A stretch of DNA of 64,000 nt, taken from the sequence record MN850633.1; one strand, given 5' to 3'. A program made the position numbers and the translations under genes. This document shows, piece after piece, positions 5,364-57,008 of this stretch (within the stretch, counting starts at the first letter, position 1; each line of letters opens with the position of its first letter). The DNA comes from Escherichia phage allfine. The notes beneath the pieces are model-generated. The model was given only the letters and a program-made list of their open reading frames with translations, had not been told where the DNA came from and made no database searches.

Positions 5364-5624
5364 ATGAAAATTGAACACTGCTATGAGTCTGATGGAACAC
5401 CTATCCGATGCCCACATTGTGGATGTACAGACTTACAAGGTGAAGTTCATGTGATTGTTAATGGTCATATAGCTGAAGAGAGTACAACATGTGTTGGTTG
5501 TGGTGAGCATCTATCATTCTGGGCTTATGGTTCATACCAACCTACACCACACTTAATCTACCATAGCAATAAAGCTGTGAAGAATGTTATCAACTGGTTT
5601 ATTAAGAAAGGATTTACAAAATGA
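5364..5624 (+). CDS. zinc-ribbon protein
   Basis: CPHCGC ... CVGCGEH, two CxxC pairs. Confidence 0.45.
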   Translation: MKIEHCYESDGTPIRCPHCGCTDLQGEVHVIVNGHIAEESTTCVGCGEHLSFWAYGSYQPTPHLIYHSNKAVKNVINWFIKKGFTK

Positions 5625-6166
5625 TTAAATTAATCTTTGCAAGTGGTGAAAATGGTGAGTTTGGTACTCCAACTGGTATGCCGTGGCCTCGACATAAACA
5701 GGACATGCAAGAGTTTAAGAGACTCACTAAAAATAACTTAGTAGTCATGGGTAATGAGACTTTTAAGACTCTGGGTAGTAAACCTTTACCAGAACGTGCA
5801 AACCTCATCTTAACAAATTCTGTACCATACTTAGGCATAGACTTTGGCAAAGATGATGTAATGTATGCTAAAGCCAGTAAAGAGTCATTTGGAGCATTTT
5901 TGAAGTATCTTGATAGCTCTATTGATGAAGATGTCTTTGTAATTGGTGGTGCAGGTATCCTTGTCAATGCTTTACCGTATGCTAGTGTGGTGTTCCATAC
6001 TGTTTTCCATAAAGTTACTGAAGAGGCCACTGTGCATTTACCTTTTGAAAACTTCTTTGAGAAGCTGTATGATAACCGTGTGTTTACAAAGGTACAGTCA
6101 AAACCATCAGAGGATGGTAAAGCAACTTTTGAAATTTATGTTCCACAAGTAAAAGGACACTTTTGA
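5621..6166 (+). CDS. dihydrofolate reductase
   Basis: N-terminal LIFA...MPW signature and length 181 aa typical of DHFR; immediately upstream of thymidylate synthase. Confidence 0.75.
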   Translation: MIKLIFASGENGEFGTPTGMPWPRHKQDMQEFKRLTKNNLVVMGNETFKTLGSKPLPERANLILTNSVPYLGIDFGKDDVMYAKASKESFGAFLKYLDSSIDEDVFVIGGAGILVNALPYASVVFHTVFHKVTEEATVHLPFENFFEKLYDNRVFTKVQSKPSEDGKATFEIYVPQVKGHF

Positions 6167-44699: not shown

Positions 44700-44726
44700 T
44701 CCTTAATTGGGGGTTTTTTAATTTTT
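44700..44726 (+). terminator. intrinsic terminator closing the plus-strand block
   Basis: GC-rich stem then TTTTTTAATTTTTT. Confidence 0.45.
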
Positions 44727-44769
44727 TATAAAATTTTATCGGTTGTCCCAACCTCTGGGTCACCATCAT

Positions 44770-45890
44770 ATGTGAATAAAGTATCTATCCTTTTTAACAA
44801 CCTTCTTAATCTTACTCTCTATATAGTTATATAGTACTATATAGTATCTTAGTATCTATCTAGTGGTCTTAATAGCCCCTCTGTATAACCCTTCTAACAA
44901 GCCCTCTAACAAGCCATCTAAACACTCTTCTAACAAGCCTTCTAAACAACCTATACAATCATCTTAACCATCTCTCTATATCCTCTTAGAAGCTCCTATA
45001 CACCTCTTAATCTCTAGGTTAGCTATGTTACCCTCTATAGGTGTTCACTAGGTACTACTAAGCCTCTATATAGACTGTTTTAACAAACTTAACAGGAATA
45101 TCTTCACAGACCTTATCTCACAAGGTCTAACACGGTACTAACAAGGTATCTTATAAGCCTGTTATTACCTGTATTTTTAAAAGACTGTCTAGGTAATTAT
45201 TCAGAATCTTAAAATTTTTATAAAATAGGACTATCAAGTCATTTTTTAGGGTCTTTGAAGGAACTGAAAAATATCTGATTAGGATGTATATCTGCTTGGT
45301 AGCCCTTAACAGCTCCCTTACAAGTACTTTGCAAAATTTTAAAATATCCTTAACAATTTCTTAACAACTCTCTCAAGCTCTTAACAAATCTTCAAAGGTC
45401 TTAACAGATTCTTAACAGAACTAACAAGGATGTAACAGTTTCTTAACAGTTGATACATAGTCTTTACAGAGTCTTAACAGATGACTAACAAGAGTTAATT
45501 AGTTAATTTTAAAGAGTTATTTTGTTAAGATAATTAACAAGTTCCTAACAAGTGTTTAATCTTTTTAACAAGCTATTAACATGGTCACTATCTCTTGGTC
45601 TATAGTTCCCTTTCCTTCTTAGTGATTCTTTAAACATACCTCTTAAAAGCTCTCTATAGCTCTTCATAGGCTCTTTTAAGTCTCTTCCTAGTAGTTACAC
45701 CCCAACTGTACAGACACCTCTTTATAGGGCTTTACAGGAGCTTTTAAGGCTATGTCAAAGACTCTTACAAGGCTTTTACGTGGTCTTAACAGAGATTTAA
45801 CAAGGGGCTAACAAGTTGCTAACAAGTGCCTTAAAAGCATAACTATGTAGGGATTGTTAAGAAATTGTTAAGAAAATGTTAAGGGGGCTA
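44770..45890. repeat. array of more than 30 TTAACAR / CTAACAAG heptamer motifs, densest at 45349-45590, partly phased at 10-11 bp
   Basis: Direct reading: CTTAACAATTT CTTAACAACTC ... CTTAACAGATT CTTAACAGAA CTAACAAGGA ...; inverted copies TTGTTAAG at 45851-45880; no ORF of 60 aa or more. Confidence 0.6.
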
Positions 45891-45900
45891 GCATTTACGT

Positions 45901-45950
45901 AACTTTTAAACTACTTCAAAATAACTTTTAAACTACTTCAAAATAACTTT
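45901..45950. repeat. 22 bp tandem direct repeat, 2.3 copies
   Basis: AACTTTTAAACTACTTCAAAAT twice, then partial third copy. Confidence 0.6.
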
Positions 45951-46274
45951 ATAGCCCCCTTCTTAGATATTCACAAGATAGCTAACGAGATAATAAAGCT
46001 TACACCCTTATAAGATTCTTTTAAGTCTCTGGGAAGCTTTATAAAGGGCTTTTTAGGGTGAGTTAATGCAATCCCTTAAGTTAGGTTGATAAGGCTGTTA
46101 TAGAGCTTTATAGAGCGTTTAAACGGTTGCCCTTCCCTTTCGGGTTATGGGCTTATATTTAAGTTGATTTGATAAAAGGCTATAGAGTAGACTATAGAGT
46201 TATTGCTTTTTAAGGTCTGATAAGATTCTGGAAAGGAAAGGGAAAGGGTTGTATAAGGGATTTGATAAGACGTA

Positions 46275-46299
46275 AAAAAGCCCCTATGGGAAAGGGGCT
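46275..46299 (-). terminator. intrinsic terminator at end of minus-strand small-gene array
   Basis: AGCCCCT-TTCCCAT-AGGGGCT followed by TTTTTT on minus strand. Confidence 0.55.
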
Positions 46300-46337
46300 G
46301 TAAAGGTATCTGGGGCTATTTAGCCCCGTTGCGGCGT

Positions 46338-46586
46338 TTAGTTAGTGCCTTTTTTGTCGTAGTACAGGGAGACAATTTTTTCACCCCAGTAGTGGTATGT
46401 ATAACCCTCTTTGAGAACTTCCTGTTTTGTTTCTTTCCAGAATTCATCAGAGGGGTTGTAGTCACTGATGGTCTGGCTGATAAGGCCTTTCACCATTTCA
46501 AAGGTGTTATCAGTACCTACAAGGTCAAATTTAACGTCCAGAGAGTAGAAGCCGAATTCGTTAACAGTTGCGCGGATAGTAGCCAT
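46338..46586 (-). CDS. hypothetical small protein (82 aa)
   Basis: ORF preceded by family-A cassette and GGAG RBS. Confidence 0.5.
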   Translation of the reverse strand: MATIRATVNEFGFYSLDVKFDLVGTDNTFEMVKGLISQTISDYNPSDEFWKETKQEVLKEGYTYHYWGEKIVSLYYDKKGTN

Positions 46587-46665
46587 TTTAGAATCTCCAG
46601 TTTAGGAAGTTGATTAAGGGTTTTATTTAGTGGGGAAGGTCATTCCCTCCCCGTTGATTGACAAT
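46587..46665 (-). promoter_or_regulatory. family-A upstream cassette
   Basis: Conserved hairpin GGGGAAGGTCATTCCCTCCCC and shared leader CTAAACTGGAGATTCnAAAATG; copies also at 47197-47290, 47759-47848, 48983-49082, 49847-49933. Confidence 0.5.
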
Positions 46666-47196
46666 TTACAGACTTTTGATTGTCTCGTCAATATCTTTTT
46701 CAATATCTTTTAAAGTTTTTTCTAAGTTCTTGATATTGAAAGATAAGCCCTCTCCTAGTGTCTTAGAGTAACCGCTAGGACGTGAGTTATATAGTTCGAT
46801 TTCTTCCACTTCGAAGAGACTAACCAACTCACCGCTTACACTGTAAGCCATTGAAACAGTATTTACAGGGGCTTTATAAAACTTGTTTAAGGACTTGATA
46901 GAACGTTCATAAGCCATTTTATAACCGTTTAAAAGGTTTTTAACGTGGTTACGAACGTTTTTGCACTCATCTAAGTAAATCTCTAAGAATAACGGTAATA
47001 ATTCCGCTACAGCTTGCATAAAGTGAGAGACTACAACAGTAGAAACATTACGGCGATGAATGTAATAAGCCCCGTTTTCTGACTTAGTGATGGTTGCAAA
47101 GTGTACCCCATTGCAGCGAAATTCGTATGTGTCTTTTACAGGTTTTGACATTACAGCATTTGAACGAATGAAGTTGATAGCTTTAAACTTGTTCAT
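46666..47196 (-). CDS. hypothetical protein (176 aa)
   Basis: ORF preceded by family-A cassette. Confidence 0.5.
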   Translation of the reverse strand: MNKFKAINFIRSNAVMSKPVKDTYEFRCNGVHFATITKSENGAYYIHRRNVSTVVVSHFMQAVAELLPLFLEIYLDECKNVRNHVKNLLNGYKMAYERSIKSLNKFYKAPVNTVSMAYSVSGELVSLFEVEEIELYNSRPSGYSKTLGEGLSFNIKNLEKTLKDIEKDIDETIKSL

Positions 47197-47416
47197 TTTG
47201 ACTCTCCTAGTTTAAGGATTTTATTTAGTGAGGAAGGTCATCCCTCCCGTTGATTAGTAATTTACTTGTTTTGATAGCTGATTGCAAGCAATTTTTTAAG
47301 CTTATCTATAAAGAATCTTTTAAGTGAATCCCTTTTAGATAAACCCCCTCGAACAAAGTTACCAATGTCAAGGGGTATTGTCAACACTTTTTTAAAAGTT
47401 TTTTGTAAGTTATTGA

Positions 47417-47758
47417 TTAACTGATGAATATTTTTTCAGGCTTTACATAGCTGATACGTTGACTTTTTAGAAGGTCATCCCAGATTATCGCGGCAATGTG
47501 ACCATATCCGGCCTCACGTAAGAGCTTCATTGCTTTACTTCTCGTTTCAAAACGGCTTGCGTAGTACTCACTATTCAGAGTTGTTTTCTTCCCTTCATTG
47601 TCTACATGAATAATCTGCATTACGTGAAAGGGGCTTGTGTCCTCGCCTTTGTTCCACTGTTCAAAGTATTTTAGGCACTGCATAGGCGACATCTTATCAC
47701 TAACCTGAGTTGACCAAGATGCGCCAGCTTTATCGGTAATTACGGTTACATAAGCCAT
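47417..47758 (-). CDS. hypothetical protein (113 aa)
   Basis: ORF preceded by family-A cassette. Confidence 0.5.
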   Translation of the reverse strand: MAYVTVITDKAGASWSTQVSDKMSPMQCLKYFEQWNKGEDTSPFHVMQIIHVDNEGKKTTLNSEYYASRFETRSKAMKLLREAGYGHIAAIIWDDLLKSQRISYVKPEKIFIS

Positions 47759-47848
47759 TTTTAGAATCTCCAGTTTAGGACTTCATTTAGTGGGGAAGGT
47801 CATTCCCTCCCCGTTGATTGACAATTTACAGACTTTTATCAGGCTTGT

Positions 47849-48082
47849 CTAGTCTTTTTCAATGATAATTTCATATTGACCGTCAACGCTGTCAAAATAG
47901 ATGCCGTCTTTATCTTCTGTCTTAAAGTAGCATTGTATATCATCACTTGCGGGATAGTCTTGCCGTGCTATCTGGCAAACTTGAATAGCATTTTCTTTAC
48001 TTCCTGTAAACTCTTCAAGCCCTTTAAAATCGCATGAATGACCATTACAGATGGAAAGGATGAGGTAAACGGTTGTAAGCAT
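47849..48082 (-). CDS. hypothetical small Cys-containing protein (77 aa)
   Basis: ORF in track. Confidence 0.4.
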   Translation of the reverse strand: MLTTVYLILSICNGHSCDFKGLEEFTGSKENAIQVCQIARQDYPASDDIQCYFKTEDKDGIYFDSVDGQYEIIIEKD

Positions 48083-48125
48083 GATTTAAGCCCCCTAAAA
48101 GCCCCTACAAGGGGCTGATTAGTGT

Positions 48126-48692
48126 TTATAAGGTGATTGCATAGGTTTTTAAAAAAAAGCTCTTTAAATCCTCTTCTGCGATGTTTCCTGCCAGTGTATC
48201 CATGATGTCACAAAAAACCTGAATGCTGTCCGACTGTTGAACGCTTTTAGCAAGAAGCTCCAGAGACTCATCAAGATAGTTTAAATTTGGGTTATCCAAT
48301 GAAGGAAGACAAAAAGGCGAAAACATCGCATTAAACTCGGTTACGTAAACCTTTTTAATCCAATTTAAATCGAAGTATTCTGTAAAACTTGCTACGCCAG
48401 ACATATTATCACAAGAATAATCATCATTTAATTCGTCCTCTGGAATATCAAGTTCCAAGATAACAATGTTTTGGGTTTTCATCTGGAAAGCTGCCGTGAT
48501 AGTGGCATTTCCTAACGCCTGTTGAATACCTTCGGATACTATCTCTTCCTCATCGTCACCATAGATTTTATTTTCTGGGTATACGTAAAAATTGCCATCC
48601 ATATCCGAACAATTCCATGCACCTGATGGCTTATCACCATTATTAATCAGGTTGATAAAGTTTTCTTGAGTAGTACCGTGAAAGCATTTCAT
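48126..48692 (-). CDS. hypothetical acidic protein (188 aa)
   Basis: ORF preceded by family-B cassette. Confidence 0.5.
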   Translation of the reverse strand: MKCFHGTTQENFINLINNGDKPSGAWNCSDMDGNFYVYPENKIYGDDEEEIVSEGIQQALGNATITAAFQMKTQNIVILELDIPEDELNDDYSCDNMSGVASFTEYFDLNWIKKVYVTEFNAMFSPFCLPSLDNPNLNYLDESLELLAKSVQQSDSIQVFCDIMDTLAGNIAEEDLKSFFLKTYAITL

Positions 48693-48778
48693 TTTTTGAA
48701 TCTCCAGTTTAGGATTTAGTGGTAAAGCTCTTTATCTGGGGCTTACTTTATCGAACTATAAGCCCCTTGTAAAGTACT
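48693..48778 (-). promoter_or_regulatory. family-B upstream cassette with promoter-like TTTACA-17-TAAAGT inside a 29 bp palindrome
   Basis: Minus-sense AGTACTTTACAAGGGGCTTATAGTTCGATAAAGTAAGCCCC...CTAAACTGGAGATTCAAAAATG; copies at 49488-49573, 50557-50648 (variant), 51162-51249, 51523-51596, 51978-52065. Confidence 0.5.
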
Positions 48779-48982
48779 TTATTTGTTATTTTTGACAACT
48801 TTTAAGACTGCAAGATACCCTAAGCAATAAGAATCACCGAAGAGAGTCCTACCCATGAAAGAATCCTCTTTGATATCCTTTGTAGTGACAGTTTTTTCTA
48901 CGCCGTGGGAAAGGACTATATCGCCAACTTTGATATCTTTGATGTGTGTAGTTTCAATGTTTAAGCCGTTAATAATAGCCAT
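48779..48982 (-). CDS. hypothetical small protein (67 aa)
   Basis: ORF preceded by family-A cassette. Confidence 0.45.
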   Translation of the reverse strand: MAIINGLNIETTHIKDIKVGDIVLSHGVEKTVTTKDIKEDSFMGRTLFGDSYCLGYLAVLKVVKNNK

Positions 48983-49082
48983 TTTAGAATCTCCAGTTTA
49001 GGACTTTACTTAGTGGGGAAGGTCATTCCCTCCCCGTTGATGTGTAATTTAATCTATCTAAAAACCGGTGTCAACAAAATTT

Positions 49083-49487
49083 TTAGAGTTCTGCATAAAT
49101 TGCATCACAGACATCACGAAAATCGTGATTTGTCAAATTACGTTGTAACCAAGTGGCAAAGAAATCAGCGATTGCAAAATTAGCGTCATACTCGACGGAT
49201 AGCCATACTTTAACAGCAAATCGAAACATTTTTAAATCAAGCTCTTTATTCATTATCTTTGATTTGCCTAACATGTCAGCCATTTCATATTGTGCGCCGT
49301 CTAGCGTGATACCTGATGCAACGTCAGCCAATGATTTTTTTACGTTTTCAACGTCTAAGATAACGCTTTGAATCTTCCCGATAATGTTGTGCAATGTCTC
49401 ATCAGGCGCTGATGACGTGATAACATTAATCCGGTTAACGGTCAAACGTGCTTTTAAGATTGATAATTCACGGTTATTAATAGCCAT
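49083..49487 (-). CDS. hypothetical protein (134 aa)
   Basis: ORF preceded by family-B cassette. Confidence 0.5.
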   Translation of the reverse strand: MAINNRELSILKARLTVNRINVITSSAPDETLHNIIGKIQSVILDVENVKKSLADVASGITLDGAQYEMADMLGKSKIMNKELDLKMFRFAVKVWLSVEYDANFAIADFFATWLQRNLTNHDFRDVCDAIYAEL

Positions 49488-49573
49488 TTTTAAGTTCTCC
49501 AGTTTAGGATTTAGTGGTAAAGCTCTTTATCTGGGGCTTACTTTATCGAACTATAAGCCCCCTGTAAAGTACT

Positions 49574-49846
49574 TTACACTAAATGCAGCTTTTTACCTTT
49601 TACTATGATGTAACTCGATGCGCTATTGCTTTGCACATCCTGATAAATTCTGCGCAAACGGCCTTCGTAGTATACTTTCCAACTGGTTGGAATCTTTTTC
49701 CCGTATCCTGTAGCAGTTTTTTGTAGTCCTGCAAGTTGCCAATCTAAGATATGTTGTTCGGCTTGTAAATCTTCGAAGTGCATTACACCGTTCACATAGT
49801 GACGAATGGTTACGTTTAAGGTGCGACCGTTGTTAGTAGTGTACAT
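49574..49846 (-). CDS. hypothetical protein (90 aa)
   Basis: ORF preceded by family-A cassette. Confidence 0.5.
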   Translation of the reverse strand: MYTTNNGRTLNVTIRHYVNGVMHFEDLQAEQHILDWQLAGLQKTATGYGKKIPTSWKVYYEGRLRRIYQDVQSNSASSYIIVKGKKLHLV

Positions 49847-49933
49847 TTTGAATCTCCTAGTTTAAGGACTTTACTTAGTGGGGAGGTTATTACCTCCCGT
49901 TGATTAGTAATTTACTTGTTTTAAAAACCAAAA

Positions 49934-50266
49934 TCAAGAGGAATTTTTTCGTTTGCTCAATTCTTGAACAATTACAGCGTAGTAGTCTTTTAAGTCACTG
50001 ACATTTAAAGCATTTATCAGAGAATTATAATCATCGACTAACTGAAAATCATCTTTGAAAATGTCGCTGATTTGATAAGTTTTTGATTGAAATCTGAAGC
50101 TCATTTCTAACCGTTTTATTTGTTCATCACTTAAACGCTCCAGAAAGCTCATTACAAGGCTATTATTGACCTGTTGCGTGATTGCCTTATTTGCTAGATT
50201 ATAGGCTTTATATGCCTTATATAGCGCGAAAATGGCAAGGATTGCGGTGATGCCAGTCATTAACAT
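49934..50266 (-). CDS. membrane-anchored protein (110 aa)
   Basis: N-terminal hydrophobic segment LMTGITAILAIFALY. Confidence 0.45.
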   Translation of the reverse strand: MLMTGITAILAIFALYKAYKAYNLANKAITQQVNNSLVMSFLERLSDEQIKRLEMSFRFQSKTYQISDIFKDDFQLVDDYNSLINALNVSDLKDYYAVIVQELSKRKNSS

Positions 50267-50556
50267 GGTGTTTCCTCTTTACGTGATACTTTGCCATTTA
50301 CAGTTATCTCATAGGATTCTAATAAGTCACTTTTAGACTTTACTGGACTTTTAAAAGTATCATCATAAATATTTACTTGCAATACAGGTTTTTTATACTC
50401 CCTGCAACTATTCCATAAGCAAATCACTACGCGACGGCCTTTTATTTTGCCGTGCAACCATTCCATAACATCATGATTATTTCTTGATGTCTCGATAAAA
50501 TCAATTTTGTTGAGTAATTTGCTCAGATTTTCACGCACTTGATTTGATAATTTCAT
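50260..50556 (-). CDS. hypothetical protein (98 aa)
   Basis: ORF preceded by family-B-variant cassette. Confidence 0.45.
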   Translation of the reverse strand: MKLSNQVRENLSKLLNKIDFIETSRNNHDVMEWLHGKIKGRRVVICLWNSCREYKKPVLQVNIYDDTFKSPVKSKSDLLESYEITVNGKVSRKEETPC

Positions 50557-50648
50557 TTTAGAATCTCCTAGTTTAAGGGCTTTATTTGATAAATCTCTTT
50601 ATCTGGGGCTATCTTACCAGCTTGATAACCCCGTGTAAAGAAATCTAT

Positions 50649-51161
50649 TTAGTTCTTAAAGATATTCATCACTGAGTCTTTCAACGATTCCAAACGTTCT
50701 AATACTTCAGTTTCTGCGTCTGAATTGTTCACCTCTTCTTTTAGTCTATCTTCTAAATCCTCACCGTCACTATAGCACCAATCGAAAGCGTAACCAATAT
50801 AAAAGCTGTCTAAAACCGTTTTACCGTTTGCATCTACAACTTTCGCGGCAATGTTATACTCTGAAGCTTCTAAATCTCTTTCTAGTTCTTTTTGTAAGCT
50901 GATGTAAGCCTCTTTTGATGGATTTTCCCGGCCTTGTTTTGCATAGTCACTTGAAAGCTGTTTAAGGCTGTAATGCAAAGGGATTGCATATTTAAATGCA
51001 TTATGCTGATAGTTAGGATTTTTAACAGTCACGCCGCCTTGATGGTCATCTGTAAACTTCCAATTATCAAGGTTATGGCTTGCTTCGTAGCAATTTACCG
51101 CTTCATAGATAATGGTGAATTTTTCTTTTACAACTTCAAAAGTAGCGTCTACAGTTTTCAT
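50649..51161 (-). CDS. hypothetical protein (170 aa)
   Basis: ORF preceded by family-B cassette. Confidence 0.5.
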   Translation of the reverse strand: MKTVDATFEVVKEKFTIIYEAVNCYEASHNLDNWKFTDDHQGGVTVKNPNYQHNAFKYAIPLHYSLKQLSSDYAKQGRENPSKEAYISLQKELERDLEASEYNIAAKVVDANGKTVLDSFYIGYAFDWCYSDGEDLEDRLKEEVNNSDAETEVLERLESLKDSVMNIFKN

Positions 51162-51249
51162 TTTTGAATCTCCAGTTTAGGATTTAGTGGTAAAGCTCTT
51201 TATCTGGGGCTTAAGATATCAACTTTTAAGCCCCTTGTAAAGTACTTTA

Positions 51250-51522
51250 TCAGATTAAATTGCCAGTTAATGATAAGTGCATTTTATAGCCTTTTTTGGT
51301 AAAGACGTTCACTTTACCGAGTGATTTTACACCTTTAAAAAGGTTGTTTGAACTGCGTTTTAAGGTTAGTTGTTTATCAGCCTTTACTCCCCATCTTACA
51401 GCGGATTGTTTTCCGTTGTCAACCACTTTCCCGCATAACTTTTTAGCCATAACGCGAGCGTCATCACGAGTTTTTGCAGCAATTACAACGTTTTTGATAA
51501 TAGCCATTTTTAAGTTCTCCAA
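51250..51522 (-). CDS. hypothetical basic protein (90 aa)
   Basis: ORF preceded by family-B cassette. Confidence 0.5.
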   Translation of the reverse strand: MENLKMAIIKNVVIAAKTRDDARVMAKKLCGKVVDNGKQSAVRWGVKADKQLTLKRSSNNLFKGVKSLGKVNVFTKKGYKMHLSLTGNLI

Positions 51523-51596
51523 TTTAGGATTTAGTGGTAAAGCTCTTTATCTGGGGCTTACTTTATCGAACTATAAGCCCCTTGTAAAGTACTTTA

Positions 51597-51977
51597 TCAG
51601 TTAATTTTGAAAATTGTCACATAGCCGTCACTGCCGATTATTTGAGACACTCCAGCTTTTTCCACTGAATAGCCCATATTTTCAAGATGATAAACAGCAT
51701 CATCATAACCATATGCGCCACCCTGATAACGTCTCTTATCGCATCTTATCAGGTTTTTACCACGTCCTGCAAGTGCATTCAGTACAGCTTTTTCACTTGA
51801 TAGCGTACCATCTAACATGGTTGCCGTGTAATGGTTGATTTTATTCCCGTTAATATCATACTTAAAATTGAATGCGTGAATAACAATCAATTTGCCGTTA
51901 AATTTTTCATCAAGTGACTTCTCCAGTGCGTTGCGGAAGTTGTCTTTGTTGATGAATTTCGGTGCACGATAAGCCAT
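51597..51977 (-). CDS. hypothetical protein (126 aa)
   Basis: ORF preceded by family-B cassette. Confidence 0.5.
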   Translation of the reverse strand: MAYRAPKFINKDNFRNALEKSLDEKFNGKLIVIHAFNFKYDINGNKINHYTATMLDGTLSSEKAVLNALAGRGKNLIRCDKRRYQGGAYGYDDAVYHLENMGYSVEKAGVSQIIGSDGYVTIFKIN

Positions 51978-52065
51978 TTTTGAATCTCCTAGTTTAAGGT
52001 TAATGTAGTAAAGCTCTTTATCTGGGGCTTACTTTATCGAACTATAAGCCCCTTGTAAAGTACTT

Positions 52066-52287
52066 TTATCTATCGTAATAGTAAACCGCTGTCTGTTTTA
52101 TATGTCGCTTTGTATTCTTCGTAAGGTAGCAATTAGAGTTGATTGCCGTTTCTACATAGTTGCAATAATCAGCTTCTGATATTCTACGCCATGCGCCGCA
52201 CACTTGCATGTAAAAACGTTTTACCTTTGTATTAACGTTGGTTGTAACCATCAATTCACGGCTGTAAATCATTATTTCGCGCTCCAT
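52066..52287 (-). CDS. hypothetical Cys-containing protein (73 aa)
   Basis: ORF in track. Confidence 0.4.
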   Translation of the reverse strand: MEREIMIYSRELMVTTNVNTKVKRFYMQVCGAWRRISEADYCNYVETAINSNCYLTKNTKRHIKQTAVYYYDR

Positions 52288-52460
52288 TTCTCAAAGAGTT
52301 CAGCAGGGAAACGTTCGCTATAACCTTTTAAGGAAAAAGTGTTATCTTTGTGGATAGCTTCCACCTGATAAACCTTATAAGAACGTATAGTTAGCATTTT
52401 GTAAGAGTATTCGTGCTTAATGTTAACCTCATCGCCAACTTTAATTTTTCTTGATGCCAT
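52272..52460 (-). CDS. hypothetical small protein (62 aa)
   Basis: ORF preceded by shared leader GAATCTCCAGTTTAGGAAG. Confidence 0.4.
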   Translation of the reverse strand: MASRKIKVGDEVNIKHEYSYKMLTIRSYKVYQVEAIHKDNTFSLKGYSERFPAELFEKWSAK

Positions 52461-52699
52461 TTCTTAGATTCTCCAGTTTAGGAAGTGGGCTTGATTGCCC
52501 GTCTGATGCAGATATTAGATAACCATACTCAAAGAGTCAATAGGAATTTTAAAAATATTTTTTTTTGCAAAGATTGTAATGAAACGGGTGCGCGCGACTA
52601 CCATAAAACAGAACTACAATCAAGAATTATTTTTCAATCCGCTACAAATTTTTCTGTTGACTTTTATTTCCAGATGTGGTAGCCTTGTGAGAAATGGCG

Positions 52700-52925
52700 A
52701 CATCCCTACCTGCACCCACCTACCTGCACAATTCTAAAATGATTTTTCTTGCCCGACCTGATTTTTCTCTGCACGTTTTGAAAATGAAAAAGCTCTTTGG
52801 AGATTACCTGCACAGTTTGAAAATGAATTTTCCCTTTGGAGTTCAAAATTTTCTCTACAGATTTCTCTACAGAACTCTACCTGCACAATCCTGAAATGAA
52901 AAAGCCCCCCTTACCTGAAAAATTT
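52700..52925. repeat. iteron-like array: four to five copies of TACCTGCACA...AAAATGA units plus 11 bp tandem TTCTCTACAGA
   Basis: TACCTGCAC at 52707, 52721, 52805, 52878 and TTACCTGAAA at 52911; TTCTCTACAGATTTCTCTACAGA at about 52852-52874. Confidence 0.5.
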
Positions 52926-52972
52926 ACCAGATAAGAAAGGCTTAGTCTATTGTGAATACTATACAGAATTTC

Positions 52973-53758
52973 TTAGTTCTTTGCGTCTAAGAAGGTTACT
53001 TCCGGTGAAGAGAAAACCGTCTCGATATCCTCATCATTTCTTGCATAGATGTAAGCATCTGCATCACTGCCAAATGTTACTGCAATTCTGTGATTGCTCT
53101 TCGACAGGTGGGTAACTAGAGCGTTACTTAGAGACATCTTCTCAACCGGAGGGTTACTTTGATGTATCTTACCTTTTCTTCGTCTGAAGAGGGTAACTGT
53201 ATCATCTGTGAACATTACTACACCTGCAAAGTATTCTGGTTCACAGTAGTTATTCCAACCTGAGCGTAACTTGTGGTACATCTCTCCTTCGTAGACATAC
53301 AGATAAACATCTACACTCTTCATCACCTGATTAATGATAACTGTGACGGCTTGAGGGTCTAGCCCACCGATACCTGCACCAATCATAGGTAGACCAACTT
53401 TCTTCAACTGATTGACTTCACAGTATCTGTTAAGCTGTTTCAAAGATGATTCTAAAGCACTGTATCGGGCATCTTTACCAGTCTTAAGCTGAGTGTAAAG
53501 GTTAGCTATTCGACCTTGTTTTAAACGTGCTACAGAGAAATTACCCAGTAAATTTTCACAGGGTTTGTGTCCTATACCACCTGCATATAGATAAACTTCT
53601 GTATCGGTCTCATATGCTTTTGGGTAAAGTTTAGAAATCTTGTCAGCGATACCTGCACCCATTAAATTCATACAGTTGCAACCGTGACCGATGATGTCAA
53701 ACTTACCTTTATCAAATGCGGCAAAGATATCACCATTGATTATTTTTACAATACCCAT
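52973..53758 (-). CDS. macro-domain protein of TARG1/OARD1/DarG type (ADP-ribose hydrolase fold) with about 110 aa C-terminal extension
   Basis: INGDIFAAF ... HGCNCMNLMGAGIA ... LPMIGAGIGGLD parallels TARG1 KGDLFA ... HCISEDCRMGAGIA ... MPRIGCGLD (TARG1 recalled from memory). Confidence 0.6.
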   Translation of the reverse strand: MGIVKIINGDIFAAFDKGKFDIIGHGCNCMNLMGAGIADKISKLYPKAYETDTEVYLYAGGIGHKPCENLLGNFSVARLKQGRIANLYTQLKTGKDARYSALESSLKQLNRYCEVNQLKKVGLPMIGAGIGGLDPQAVTVIINQVMKSVDVYLYVYEGEMYHKLRSGWNNYCEPEYFAGVVMFTDDTVTLFRRRKGKIHQSNPPVEKMSLSNALVTHLSKSNHRIAVTFGSDADAYIYARNDEDIETVFSSPEVTFLDAKN

Positions 53759-55786: not shown

Positions 55787-56482
55787 TCAATGTTTAACTA
55801 ACATGGTTTTGATGTGTGGAAGGATTCTATTCACCTTCTGCACATTCTTCTCTGTATCTTCTATAAAACATACTATATTAAAGTAAGGCAGAATGCAAGA
55901 CTGAATCATCCTCACTTTCAAACTTTCTGCACTTATAGAGTTAGTCCCAAAACCACGCATAAAAAGCATGTAGTCATGCTCTGTGTTATGCCTTAAAAAC
56001 ATCTCAGTAGGTATTCTCTGAGATTCGCCTCTCGCTGTCAAGAGTCCAACGGCAGCATGATTAGCAATTGCATCAATGATATTGAAAACATACGTTGGTT
56101 TTGCTCTTACAGAGTCAAGAAGATTAGTGTACTGTGAAAATGAACCATCAGTCAGTTCCGTTGAACAATCTTCGTGATTAAAATTTGTAAGAACACCATC
56201 AATATCTGCTAAGATGAGATTCCCTTTTTCTATAAGGTCTTTATTGACTATGACTAAACTATCACGTTTTACACCTATGGATTGTCCAGTCTTTTTGTCC
56301 ACAACGTTCACAATTGGTTCTGACGTGTGGAACTCTTCAAGTGAACATACAACTTCTCTTGCGGTGTCTTCAAAGTCTCTACACTGTTCTGGAGTCCATA
56401 CACAGGAATCAAGACCTAACTCATGAGGATGTAAGTCATAAGCATGACACAGTACTTCATCAGACTTTTTTAATTTTTTCAT
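55787..56482 (-). CDS. HAD-superfamily phosphatase/nucleotidase-like protein with N-terminal extra domain
   Basis: HAD motif I DxDG present as LADIDGVLT. Confidence 0.5.
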   Translation of the reverse strand: MKKLKKSDEVLCHAYDLHPHELGLDSCVWTPEQCRDFEDTAREVVCSLEEFHTSEPIVNVVDKKTGQSIGVKRDSLVIVNKDLIEKGNLILADIDGVLTNFNHEDCSTELTDGSFSQYTNLLDSVRAKPTYVFNIIDAIANHAAVGLLTARGESQRIPTEMFLRHNTEHDYMLFMRGFGTNSISAESLKVRMIQSCILPYFNIVCFIEDTEKNVQKVNRILPHIKTMLVKH

Positions 56483-57008
56483 GGTTTACCTTAGAAATGT
56501 TTGTTGCAAATTCACATTGAGCAATAACTTTCATGTTGTTATAGACATCTTGAGAATATTTCTTAGCTTTAGGGATTTTGTACGAATACCCAGCATTATA
56601 TGATGCTAAAACTTTTTGTAAAGTCTTCTTTGACTTTGGCTGACCATGCACCTTTGTCCAAAACTCAAGCTCTTTGTGAGTTTCCTTCGCAGCATAATCA
56701 AAGTCTCTTAAGAGTTTCTTTTTAGCCACATTAGGACTAATTTTGTTACGCTTTACAACAGTCTTCAAGTGATTCTGGAAGATACCATAATCATGTGTCT
56801 TTTTATTCTCTACCTTCAGACCTAACTCTGACTCTTGTAAGGCTATAGCAGCTAGAGTGATACCCCAACCTTTACCCATGTTATTCTCACCATACTGGTA
56901 AGCTTTTAACATGTTTACTTTTTGGCTAATTGATAGCTCTGGGCAGTCAACTGCATAAGATAAGTGTGCTGTAAACATTAAGCACAAACCTAGAATCAAT
57001 TTCTTCAT
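56460..57008 (-). CDS. secreted lytic transglycosylase-like protein
   Basis: Signal peptide MKKLILGLCLMFTAHLSYA; QESELG and YGIFQ resemble SLT-domain catalytic region. Confidence 0.45.
   Translation of the reverse strand: MKKLILGLCLMFTAHLSYAVDCPELSISQKVNMLKAYQYGENNMGKGWGITLAAIALQESELGLKVENKKTHDYGIFQNHLKTVVKRNKISPNVAKKKLLRDFDYAAKETHKELEFWTKVHGQPKSKKTLQKVLASYNAGYSYKIPKAKKYSQDVYNNMKVIAQCEFATNISKVNHEKIKKV

Follow-up and report, generated by a model that had tools for sequence, protein, structure and literature searches.

Promoter-early stem-loops (PeSLs) were described in the T4-like phages RB49/phi1, T4/PST and KVP40/nt-1 (Arbiol et al. 2010, PMC2839356; Comeau et al. 2014, PMC4122927). According to these studies, a PeSL combines a near-consensus sigma70 promoter with a GGGG..CCCC stem-loop containing G-T pairs, which can occupy five positions, among them between the boxes, over the -10 box and after it. 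The element is completed by a 5' part that is rich in AT and contains the upstream stop codon, and by a 3' Shine-Dalgarno sequence followed by ATG; the copies are clustered among ORFans in hyperplastic regions and associated with indels. Experiments with RB49 revealed strong promoters, a stem-loop that strongly reduces downstream expression and mini-circles derived from recombination (PMC2839356; PMC4122927). Here we describe an array of small genes and their spacers within a window of 64,000 nucleotides from Escherichia phage allfine (MN850633.1), a member of the genus Felixounavirus in the subfamily Ounavirinae. We read the spacers as composite regulatory cassettes of the PeSL type and the array as a hyperplastic region of early genes in a Felix O1-like phage, and assign this interpretation a probability of roughly 0.72. 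The kind of element is already known, and the array is best explained as a new member of it in the Felix O1 group, for which no such element was found in the literature searched.

The array occupies positions 46338..52460 of the window. The ORF list contains 15 open reading frames (ORFs) of 62-188 amino acids (aa) there, all on the minus strand, which confirms the 15 small genes of an earlier note on this DNA. The orientation of the genes directs transcription from 52.5 kb to 46.3 kb. In the order of transcription, ORFs 1-5 are located at 52272-52460, 52066-52287, 51597-51977, 51250-51507 and 50649-51161, ORFs 6-10 at 50260-50556, 49934-50266, 49574-49846, 49083-49487 and 48779-48982, and ORFs 11-15 at 48126-48692, 47849-48082, 47417-47758, 46666-47196 and 46338-46586. 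With Escherichia phage momo the array region (6.3 kb) shares 99.8% identity, and the 255 phage records that it matches come almost entirely from Felix O1-like phages with the hosts Escherichia, Salmonella, Shigella and Citrobacter. A Felix O1-type array with 92% identity is also present at 130046-135391 of GU169904 ('Staphylococcus phage SA1', 147 kb), a deposit that is probably chimeric or contaminated.

All spacers were extracted in sense orientation and motif copies were located by regular-expression scans. Eleven spacers belong to two sequence families, A (n=5) and B (n=6), in agreement with the at least 11 spacers proposed before, and a twelfth spacer, with which the array begins, contains a promoter of its own. 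Cassettes of family A precede the genes ending at 46586, 47196, 47758, 48982 and 49846, and cassettes of family B precede those ending at 48692, 49487, 50556, 51161, 51507 and 51977. The idea that each gene is driven by a cassette applies to 12 of the 15 genes (11 with a cassette of the two families and one with its own promoter); the other three are cassette-free, two of them overlapping the preceding gene and one located behind a terminator-like hairpin. The leader pattern was matched 9 times compared with 1.7 expected matches, a level reached in 0 of 100 shuffles, and the A-core pattern 3 times compared with 0 expected. All copies of cassettes and leaders are confined to 46.5-52.5 kb of the window; its other 58 kb contain none, and neither does the momo genome in its remaining 26 kb. 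The repeats are a non-random and well-delimited set and, as reported for PeSLs, occur in many copies among small ORFans of one region and are rare elsewhere.

Each family has a constant layout. In family A, TTGNNN is followed by 17 nt, TAAATT, about 10 nt ending in ATCAAC, a hairpin, ACTAAnTAAAnnCC and the leader; the hairpin, of the GGGG..CCCC type, reads GGGGAGGGAATGACCTTCCCC in three copies and is a shorter variant in two. Family B consists of AAAGTAC-TTTACA, one base, an inverted repeat of 28-29 nt (GGGGCTTA..TAAGCCCC and variants), the invariant segment AGATAAAGAGCTTTAC and the leader, and the -10 box is located inside the repeat, 17 nt after TTTACA. The promoter-like hexamers said to be embedded in a 29-bp palindrome are thus only partly inside it: the -10 box is included, but the -35 box TTTACA is situated 1 nt outside of the 29-nt repeat. 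The palindrome is part of a hairpin of about 58 nt, which does enclose the -35 box. The other motifs quoted in the earlier note are present as well, although the strands had been mixed (the A hairpin was given as plus strand, the B palindrome and the leader as minus strand). As in PeSLs, an AT-rich segment that includes the upstream stop codon is located ahead of the -35 box, namely (C)TGATAAAGTAC before TTTACA in family B and TAAAAATTTTG before TTGACA in family A.

For a comparison of the cassettes we used 13 loci, consisting of the window and the homologous region of twelve further phages. They cover four genera (Felixounavirus, Mooglevirus, Suspvirus and Erwinia Kolesnikvirus) and contain 63 A-type and 62 B-type cassettes. 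The -35 box is separated from the -10 box by 17 bp in 125/125 cassettes, and the T, the A and the final T of the -10 box (TAnnnT) are kept in 124 of the 125, with freely varying middle positions (TAAAGT, TATCTT, TAAGAT, TAGTAT, TACCAT and others). In family B the -35 box is TTTACA in 61 of 62 copies and the -10 box is TAnnnT in 61 of 62. In family A, 63 of 63 sites carry TTGNNN, with TTG kept exactly or nearly so, at a distance of 17 bp from TAnnnT, even where this -35 box is located inside the upstream coding sequence. Fixed distances were also found from the -10 box to the hairpin in family A (10-11 nt) and to AGATAAA in family B (6-7 nt). All 12 cassettes of the window show sigma70-like boxes about 17 bp apart, a defining property of PeSLs. 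This conservation pattern is the one expected of working sigma70 promoters, and we predict promoter activity on this basis. Conservation across the loci is much stronger evidence for promoters than a generic scan of the region (33 sites versus 23 expected). The GenBank promoter label in AYO145A falls on the most consensus-like of the sites.

The leader CC(T)TAAACT(A)GGAGAnTC..ATG is common to all 12 cassettes of the window. It is not a single identical sequence, as had been claimed, but occurs in two variants, L1 (CCTAAACTGGAGA, 8 copies) and L2 (CCTTAAACTAGGAGA, 4 copies). L2 differs from L1 by an extra T and an extra A on either side of UAAACU, and in 137 leaders these insertions are perfectly linked: 94 leaders contain neither, 43 contain both and none contains only one. 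In both variants CC(U)-UAAACU-(A)GG could fold into a short stem, to which the Shine-Dalgarno sequence contributes its first Gs; this mini-stem is a lead only, because the linkage of T and A could be simple co-conversion. The presence of L1 or L2 differs between orthologous positions. GGAG is located 8-9 nt ahead of ATG in 121 of the 137 leaders, corresponding to the 3'-terminal Shine-Dalgarno sequence and start codon of PeSLs. A role of the GGAG leader as a target of RegB, the T4 endoribonuclease that cleaves GGAG within early Shine-Dalgarno sequences, was rejected, since a RegB homologue was not detectable; a 182-aa ORF at 56460-57008 on the minus strand showed neither a Pfam RegB match nor a sequence match in the PDB. 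The sole match of this ORF was a sub-threshold SLT hit, and its homologue in Erwinia phage Panisse is annotated as 'putative T4 RegB endoribonuclease'.

All 32 unique B and all 21 unique A hairpin variants fold, with energies of -8 to -14 kcal/mol. Base pairs were counted from the outside to the inside using our own script, because a MAFFT alignment of the B cassettes placed the length difference in the 3' arm and broke the pair register. At pair 7 of the B hairpin, 22 variants have T-A and 10 have A-T, with pairing in 32/32, and the inner arms switch among CTTA/TAAG, TTATC/GATAG, TTATA/TATAG and TTTAA/TTAAG. G.U pairs are frequent in the stems and would correspond to A.C mismatches on the other strand, and the sense fold is usually the more stable one. 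Both observations point to selection on the sense single strand, most simply as RNA, and argue against an operator in duplex DNA. The position of the stem-loop also agrees with PeSLs, being between the boxes and over the -10 box in family B and 10-11 nt after the -10 box in family A.

The B hairpin is longer than the repeat of 29 nt. The segment upstream of and including the -35 box (AAAGTACTTTA) pairs with the invariant downstream segment TAAAGAGCTTTA, so that the extended hairpin of about 58 nt encloses the whole promoter. In the cassette at 48693..48781 the extended fold has an energy of -24.3 kcal/mol (z = -4.66, 0/200 shuffles as stable), and in the cassette at 50557..50648 of -27.0 kcal/mol (z = -4.10, no shuffle as stable). 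Over the 54 unique extended copies, 86% of the outer stem is paired, compared with 32-44% when the partner is slid. One pair of the outer stem is compensatory (G-C in 38 and T-A in 11 copies; paired in 51/54). The segment CCCCAGATAAAGAG is identical in 54/54 unique extended variants, and we attribute the constancy of AGATAAAGAG to the pairing with the -35 region.

This constancy bears on the idea that the inverted repeats are DNA operators, at which a dimeric protein of phage or host would shut off or time early transcription. Such an operator would be in accordance with the overlap of the B palindrome with the -10 box and the spacer, with the identity of CCCCAGATAAAGAG in all extended B variants, and with the expression of adjacent Felix O1 genes, which peak at different times: in reverse transcription PCR experiments with Felix O1, the array ORFs 16, 20, 21 and 22 were maximal at 5 min and ORFs 17, 19 and 23 at 25 min after infection. 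The stem sequences, however, covary instead of being conserved (CTTA/TAAG, TTATC/GATAG, TTTAA/TTAAG), and G.T pairs on only one strand agree with folding of a single strand but not with a symmetric site in duplex DNA. As the pairing with the -35 region explains the invariant downstream segment and the A hairpin is located downstream of its promoter, we consider operators quite unlikely.

The cassette hairpins lack the U-tract of the terminators at both ends of the array; the A hairpin is followed by ACTAAATA and the B hairpin by AGATAAAG. A role as canonical intrinsic terminators was rejected for this reason. A terminator scan of the region called only three sites, at 52943..52902, 48116..48100 and 46299..46279. 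The first one (52902..52943, minus strand) is a canonical terminator of the preceding unit, marks the upstream boundary of the array and is near-identical to Felix O1 t13. The last one (46279..46299, minus strand; AGCCCCTTTCCCATAGGGGCT followed by TTTTTT) is canonical as well, closes the array and matches the position of Felix O1 t23 after ORF23. The internal hairpin at 48100..48116 on the minus strand (AGCCCCTTGTAGGGGCT followed by TTTT) is terminator-like and weaker than the terminators at the ends; it is located in the 43-nt spacer ahead of the cassette-free gene at 47849-48082. A covariance-model search of Rfam 15 identified no family for the hairpins, the best result being a chance-level match (E 0.61; 22.7 bits compared with a gathering score of 56).

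Hairpins without U-tracts that are selected on the sense strand, together with canonical terminators at the array ends only and a single terminator-like hairpin inside, would also suit one polycistronic operon transcribed from the first promoter (52540..52512). The repeats would then be stabilisers similar to repetitive extragenic palindromic (REP) elements or processing sites, and the hexamers would be incidental. A further point in favour is the outline of the B hairpin (9 bp, then an internal loop of 3x3 and 11 bp), which resembles that of RNase III sites in the early operon of T7. Incidental hexamers would not be expected to keep an invariant T, A and final T at -10 and an invariant -35 box amid varying neighbouring bases, nor the 17-bp spacing in every cassette of four genera, including those with the -35 box inside the upstream coding sequence. 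In addition, elements of the same layout in RB49 are experimentally strong promoters. A single operon is therefore an unlikely explanation in our view.

The combination of a conserved linear motif (ATCAAC) and a hairpin directly after early promoters also recalls nut sites, and the terminator-like hairpin within the array would offer a target: the A element could be a loading site for antitermination factors that allow the polymerase to pass this terminator. Five copies per array are unlike known nut systems, the sequences of loop and stem vary freely, and the scanned neighbours did not include an N- or Q-like protein, all of which makes a nut-like function highly unlikely.

Gene-family maps and junction sequences of the 13 loci demonstrated that whole gene-plus-cassette modules are gained, lost and replaced, in line with the indel association of PeSLs. 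Felix O1 lacks three consecutive genes, and the junction is one hybrid A cassette whose promoter half matches the cassette ahead of the first missing gene. Two other genes, located between B cassettes, are missing from the same phage. AYO145A, mio and Sf15 carry an 87-aa gene with an A cassette on both sides, the first one or two genes of the array are variable among the loci, and in Mooglevirus and Suspvirus an unrelated 82-aa gene takes the place of a 67-aa gene. Shared protein families occur in a different order in the Erwinia phage. In humlepung (96.6% identity; 5388-5678 compared with 51250-51507 of the window) one array protein has a different C-terminal half, the replacement reaching as far as the next B cassette, and the homology extends into the last codons and the stop (..ATTAACTGATAAAGTAC). 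Several upstream genes have their last codons and stop ATTAACTGATAAAGTAC in common with the cassette. The internal ends of homology blocks are located in spacers in 24 of 32 cases, and spacers represent about 20% of the array. The chaining of homology blocks omits the middle of the Felix O1 comparison; the Felix O1 junctions rest on the gene-family maps and junction sequences.

The positional orthologue is the nearest relative for no more than 12 of 35 B cassettes and 12 of 29 A cassettes. The remaining cassettes most resemble a paralogue of their own genome or a cassette from a different position of another genome, and judged from these relationships cassette variants have evidently moved between positions. 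The turnover between conserved cassettes that the earlier note had proposed to look for in related phages was found. The view in that note of portable regulatory cassettes ahead of swappable genes is well supported by the conserved unit of promoter signature, hairpin and leader, by differences that affect whole units, by hybrid junctions and by moved variants. Repeats that are exchanged between positions and confined to one region could also be selfish miniature mobile elements or remnants of recent tandem duplications with no regulatory role. The orientation of the cassettes and their register to the downstream ATG (GGAG 8-9 nt before ATG, 121/137) are constant, the repeats are maintained in four genera with promoter-like conservation, and terminal inverted repeats, target duplications and a transposase are missing. 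Gene duplication is contradicted by the flanking genes, which are unrelated. We regard this explanation as exceedingly improbable.

In a PeSL-type mechanism each cassette would be an autonomous unit read by the sigma70 RNA polymerase of the host and composed of a promoter, a stem-loop selected on the sense transcript and a constant site for translation initiation, in which GGAG lies 8-9 nt ahead of ATG. Transcription from B cassettes is predicted to start directly after the inner hairpin, so that the hairpin of about 58 nt, which encloses the -35 and -10 boxes, would exist only in RNA reading through from upstream. There it could mark or insulate the 3' end of the upstream message as an attenuator, an exonuclease barrier or a processing site. 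The A hairpin begins about 3 nt after the predicted start and would form the 5' end of the cassette's own mRNA; it may act as a 5' stabiliser of this mRNA and as a barrier for read-through RNA. We give attenuation and stability or processing roughly equal odds as the role of the hairpins. About 12 near-identical cassettes of about 90 bp in direct orientation offer homology for recombination, which would delete, insert, replace and reorder gene-plus-cassette modules and homogenise the cassettes.

Several observations weigh against this interpretation. Only 4 of 6 positions of the -10 hexamers agree with the consensus and the generic scan found 33 promoter sites in the region compared with 22.9 +/- 5.2 in shuffled sequences, which makes consensus matching alone a weak argument. 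Transcript mapping for Felix O1-like phages was not found in the searchable literature, and promoters and start sites are therefore predictions. A simple model with all genes being early fails to explain that neighbouring Felix O1 genes peak at 5 or 25 min, and a link between the cassette type (A or B) and the expression time in Felix O1 was not seen. Due to the missing U-tract any terminator role of the hairpins would be non-canonical, and in the A transcripts efficient termination at +3 would defeat its own purpose. The statistic of the breakpoints is weakened because a whole-gene indel must end in a spacer anyway, and the largely conserved gene order within the genus indicates that turnover is slow. 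Finally, a BLAST search with whole cassettes revealed no match in T4-like phages or anywhere else outside of the Ounavirinae, so that the relation to PeSLs may be convergence.

Nevertheless, all six PeSL features that can be tested by sequence are present in the cassettes. Inspection of the RB49 sequence showed cassettes with the same layout, which also have no U-tract after the stem-loop. The cores of the translation start are nearly the same (GGAGAATCAAAAATG in RB49 and GGAGATTCAAAAATG here), and RB49 contains both CTGGAGA and CTAGGAGA forms. Between 14500 and 32300 of RB49, genes associated with PeSLs use the core GGAGAATCAAAAATG, and cassette-free genes mostly GAGG. Exact 20-nt matches to the leader were found in the T4-like Erwinia phage Virsaitis27 and in Enterobacter phage IME523, with borderline E values of 0.07-3. 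The systems differ in distribution, being found in the Straboviridae and here in the Ounavirinae, which does not concern the mechanism. The promoters of the array are further from the consensus (TAAATT, TAAAGT). The B stem-loop of 28-29 nt is part of the hairpin of about 58 nt that also pairs the -35 region, in contrast to about 17 nt in RB49, and the A stem-loop starts 10-11 nt after the -10 box and is predicted to be transcribed from its own promoter. The conserved leader is longer (CCTAAACT). Activities as promoter, attenuator and source of mini-circles were demonstrated for RB49 and are putative for the cassettes described here.

A description of PeSLs in Felix O1-like phages was not present in the open-access literature searched; a prior description elsewhere is possible. 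The Felix O1 genome paper (Whichard et al. 2010, PMC3185647) lists direct repeats of 57 bp and 39 bp without interpretation. The 57-bp repeat (CTTTACATGGGGCTTAAAAGTCTGTAAAGTAAGCCCCAGATAAAGAGCTTTACCACT) corresponds to the B cassette and the 39-bp repeat (TTGACACTGGTTTTTAGATAGATTAAATTACACATCAAC) to the promoter part of the A cassette. The repeats are not among the promoters listed in that paper, which states that secondary promoters and temporal control are unknown; families, hairpins, leader or a link to gene turnover are not given there for the repeats. The genome paper on wV8 does not discuss promoters and repeats.

Other known systems share single aspects with the array. The host-takeover module of Bacillus phage SPO1 (Stewart et al. 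1998) reportedly comprises about two dozen small early genes, mostly of unknown function, with many strong host-type promoters and ribosome sites. The host of SPO1 is Gram-positive, and this module is not known to contain a repeated promoter-hairpin cassette or to show cassette-mediated shuffling. T7 early RNase III sites and 5' stem-loop stabilisers of the ompA type are hairpins without U-tracts that define mRNA ends, and 5' stem-loops stabilise mRNA. The B hairpin with two stems around an internal loop and the A hairpin within about 3 nt of the predicted 5' end are similar to these elements. They are not related in sequence, there was no Rfam match, and the hairpins of the array are fused to promoters. 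Integron cassettes are a conceptual analogue, as unrelated small genes are gained and lost between structured repeats; here, an integrase and attC/attI sites are absent, each unit has a promoter, and exchange would occur by general homologous recombination. A more speculative extension, which we think rather doubtful, would be that the cassettes are a common currency among unrelated virulent enterobacterial phages, an integron-like pool without integrase from which ready-to-express gene modules pass between phage families, as would be mirrored by the near-identical core of the translation start and the common layout of Krischvirus PeSLs and Ounavirinae cassettes, and that the B hairpin of about 58 nt is a processing or insulation site at which the cleavage product and the primary transcript have the same 5' end.

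The individual cassettes are all located on the minus strand. The first one (52461..52545) contains the promoter TTGACT-17-TAATAT (52540..52512), the hairpin GGGCAATCAAGCCC (52487-52500) and leader L1 (52458-52482). Its hairpin is of a small GGGC..GCCC type; in AYO145A the same first promoter is followed by a full A-type hairpin. The B cassette at 51978..52067 has its -35 box at 52054-52059, the inner hairpin at 52024-52052, the extended hairpin at 52009-52067 and leader L2 at 51975-51999. At 51508..51596 the corresponding elements are 51583-51588, 51553-51581, 51538-51596 and L1 at 51505-51528, and at 51162..51249, with the -10 box TATCTT, they are 51236-51241, 51206-51234, 51191-51249 and L1 at 51159-51181. 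The B cassette at 50557..50648 has the -10 box TAAGAT and a variant stem (GGGGTTATC..GATAGCCCC); its -35 box is at 50634-50639, the inner hairpin at 50605-50632, the extended hairpin at 50590-50647 and L2 at 50554-50578. In the remaining two B cassettes the same order of elements is 49563-49568, 49533-49561, 49518-49576 and L1 at 49485-49508 (49488..49576), and 48768-48773, 48738-48766, 48723-48781 and L1 at 48690-48713 (48693..48781); for the latter, transcription is predicted to start at 48737-48738.

Among the A cassettes, the one at 49847..49937 consists of TTGATT (49932-49937), TAAATT (49909-49914), the hairpin GGGAGGTAATAACCTCCCC (49880-49898) and L2 (49844-49867). The cassette at 48983..49082 contains TTGACA (49069-49074), TAAATT (49046-49051), a hairpin at 49015-49035 and L1 at 48980-49002, with a predicted start at 49038-49039, and the orthologous site of AYO145A is labelled 'promoter' in GenBank. 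At 47759..47851 the -35 box TAGACA (47846-47851) is followed by the -10 box at 47823-47828, the hairpin at 47792-47812 and L1 at 47756-47779. The long spacer at 47197..47416 (220 nt) has an A cassette in its gene-proximal, lower-coordinate part of about 90 nt, with TTGCAA at 47282-47287, the -10 box at 47259-47264, the hairpin GGGAGGGATGACCTTCCTC at 47230-47248 and L2 at 47194-47217. The upstream part (47290-47416) shows two overlapping TTGACA-like sites and no gene; a 46-aa ORF is present at this position in Mooglevirus phages, and a second promoter is annotated in the equivalent spacer of AYO145A. The last A cassette (46587..46691) has the -35 box TTGACG at 46686-46691 within the upstream gene, the -10 box at 46663-46668, the hairpin at 46632-46652 and L1 at 46584-46606.

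The 15 array proteins each represent a family of their own and no two are related. All 15 match PHROGs of unknown function (E 1e-32 to 1e-92), none has a match in Pfam or NCBIfam, and sequence searches against the PDB gave no function, which is consistent with the previous description as mutually unrelated proteins with no recognisable function. For the largest one (188 aa; 48126-48692) an AlphaFold model was calculated from 15 homologues, with a predicted local distance difference test (pLDDT) score of 73.5, and Foldseek yielded only weak PDB matches for it. The protein begins with FHGT, and Y36, Y38 and E80 are invariant among the homologues. This suggests an H-Y-E active site, and the model suggests a fold similar to ADP-ribosyltransferases. 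The gene directly upstream of the array (52973-53758, minus strand, 261 aa) contains a Pfam Macro domain (PF01661, E 1e-7), a module that binds or hydrolyses ADP-ribose; it is annotated as 'phosphatase' in relatives and lies near the ADP-ribosyltransferase-like gene. The features of the 188-aa protein and the upstream Macro-domain gene are a first support, for one gene only, of the idea that the array serves host takeover, which is plausible.

The findings would extend PeSL-type cassettes beyond the T4-like phages to the Felix O1 group, which is represented by more than 250 genomes in the searched collection and contains many phages studied for biocontrol or therapy. They account for the uncommented repeats of Felix O1 and offer predicted candidates for the 'missing' secondary promoters raised by PMC3185647. 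The precise module boundaries make systematic deletion and expression screens straightforward for those accessory early genes that are the best candidates for an action on the host. With the predicted activity, the cassettes could serve in E. coli and Salmonella as expression parts that are compact and insulated by nature. Should the resemblance to RB49 PeSLs be due to exchange and not to convergence, it bears on gene sharing among virulent phages.

Both flanks of the array contain further repeats. Between the convergent plus-strand unit and the array, 1.6 kb (44700-46300) are without an ORF of at least 55 aa and carry dozens of CTTAACA(A/G)/TAACAAG repeats in both orientations, often 11 nt apart, and a perfect 22-nt tandem is located at 45900-45943 within this gap. 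Felix O1 has an equivalent ORF-free gap, and several GenBank records place a repeat_region there or begin nearby; the gap may represent a terminus of the genome, an origin or an array of protein-binding sites. On the other side, between the upstream terminator and the first promoter (52700-52915), the unit TACCTGCACA..GAAAATGA is present 3-4 times and TTTCTCTACAGA forms a tandem, and small ORFs on the opposite strand are annotated at this position in Bas63 and UAB_Phi87.

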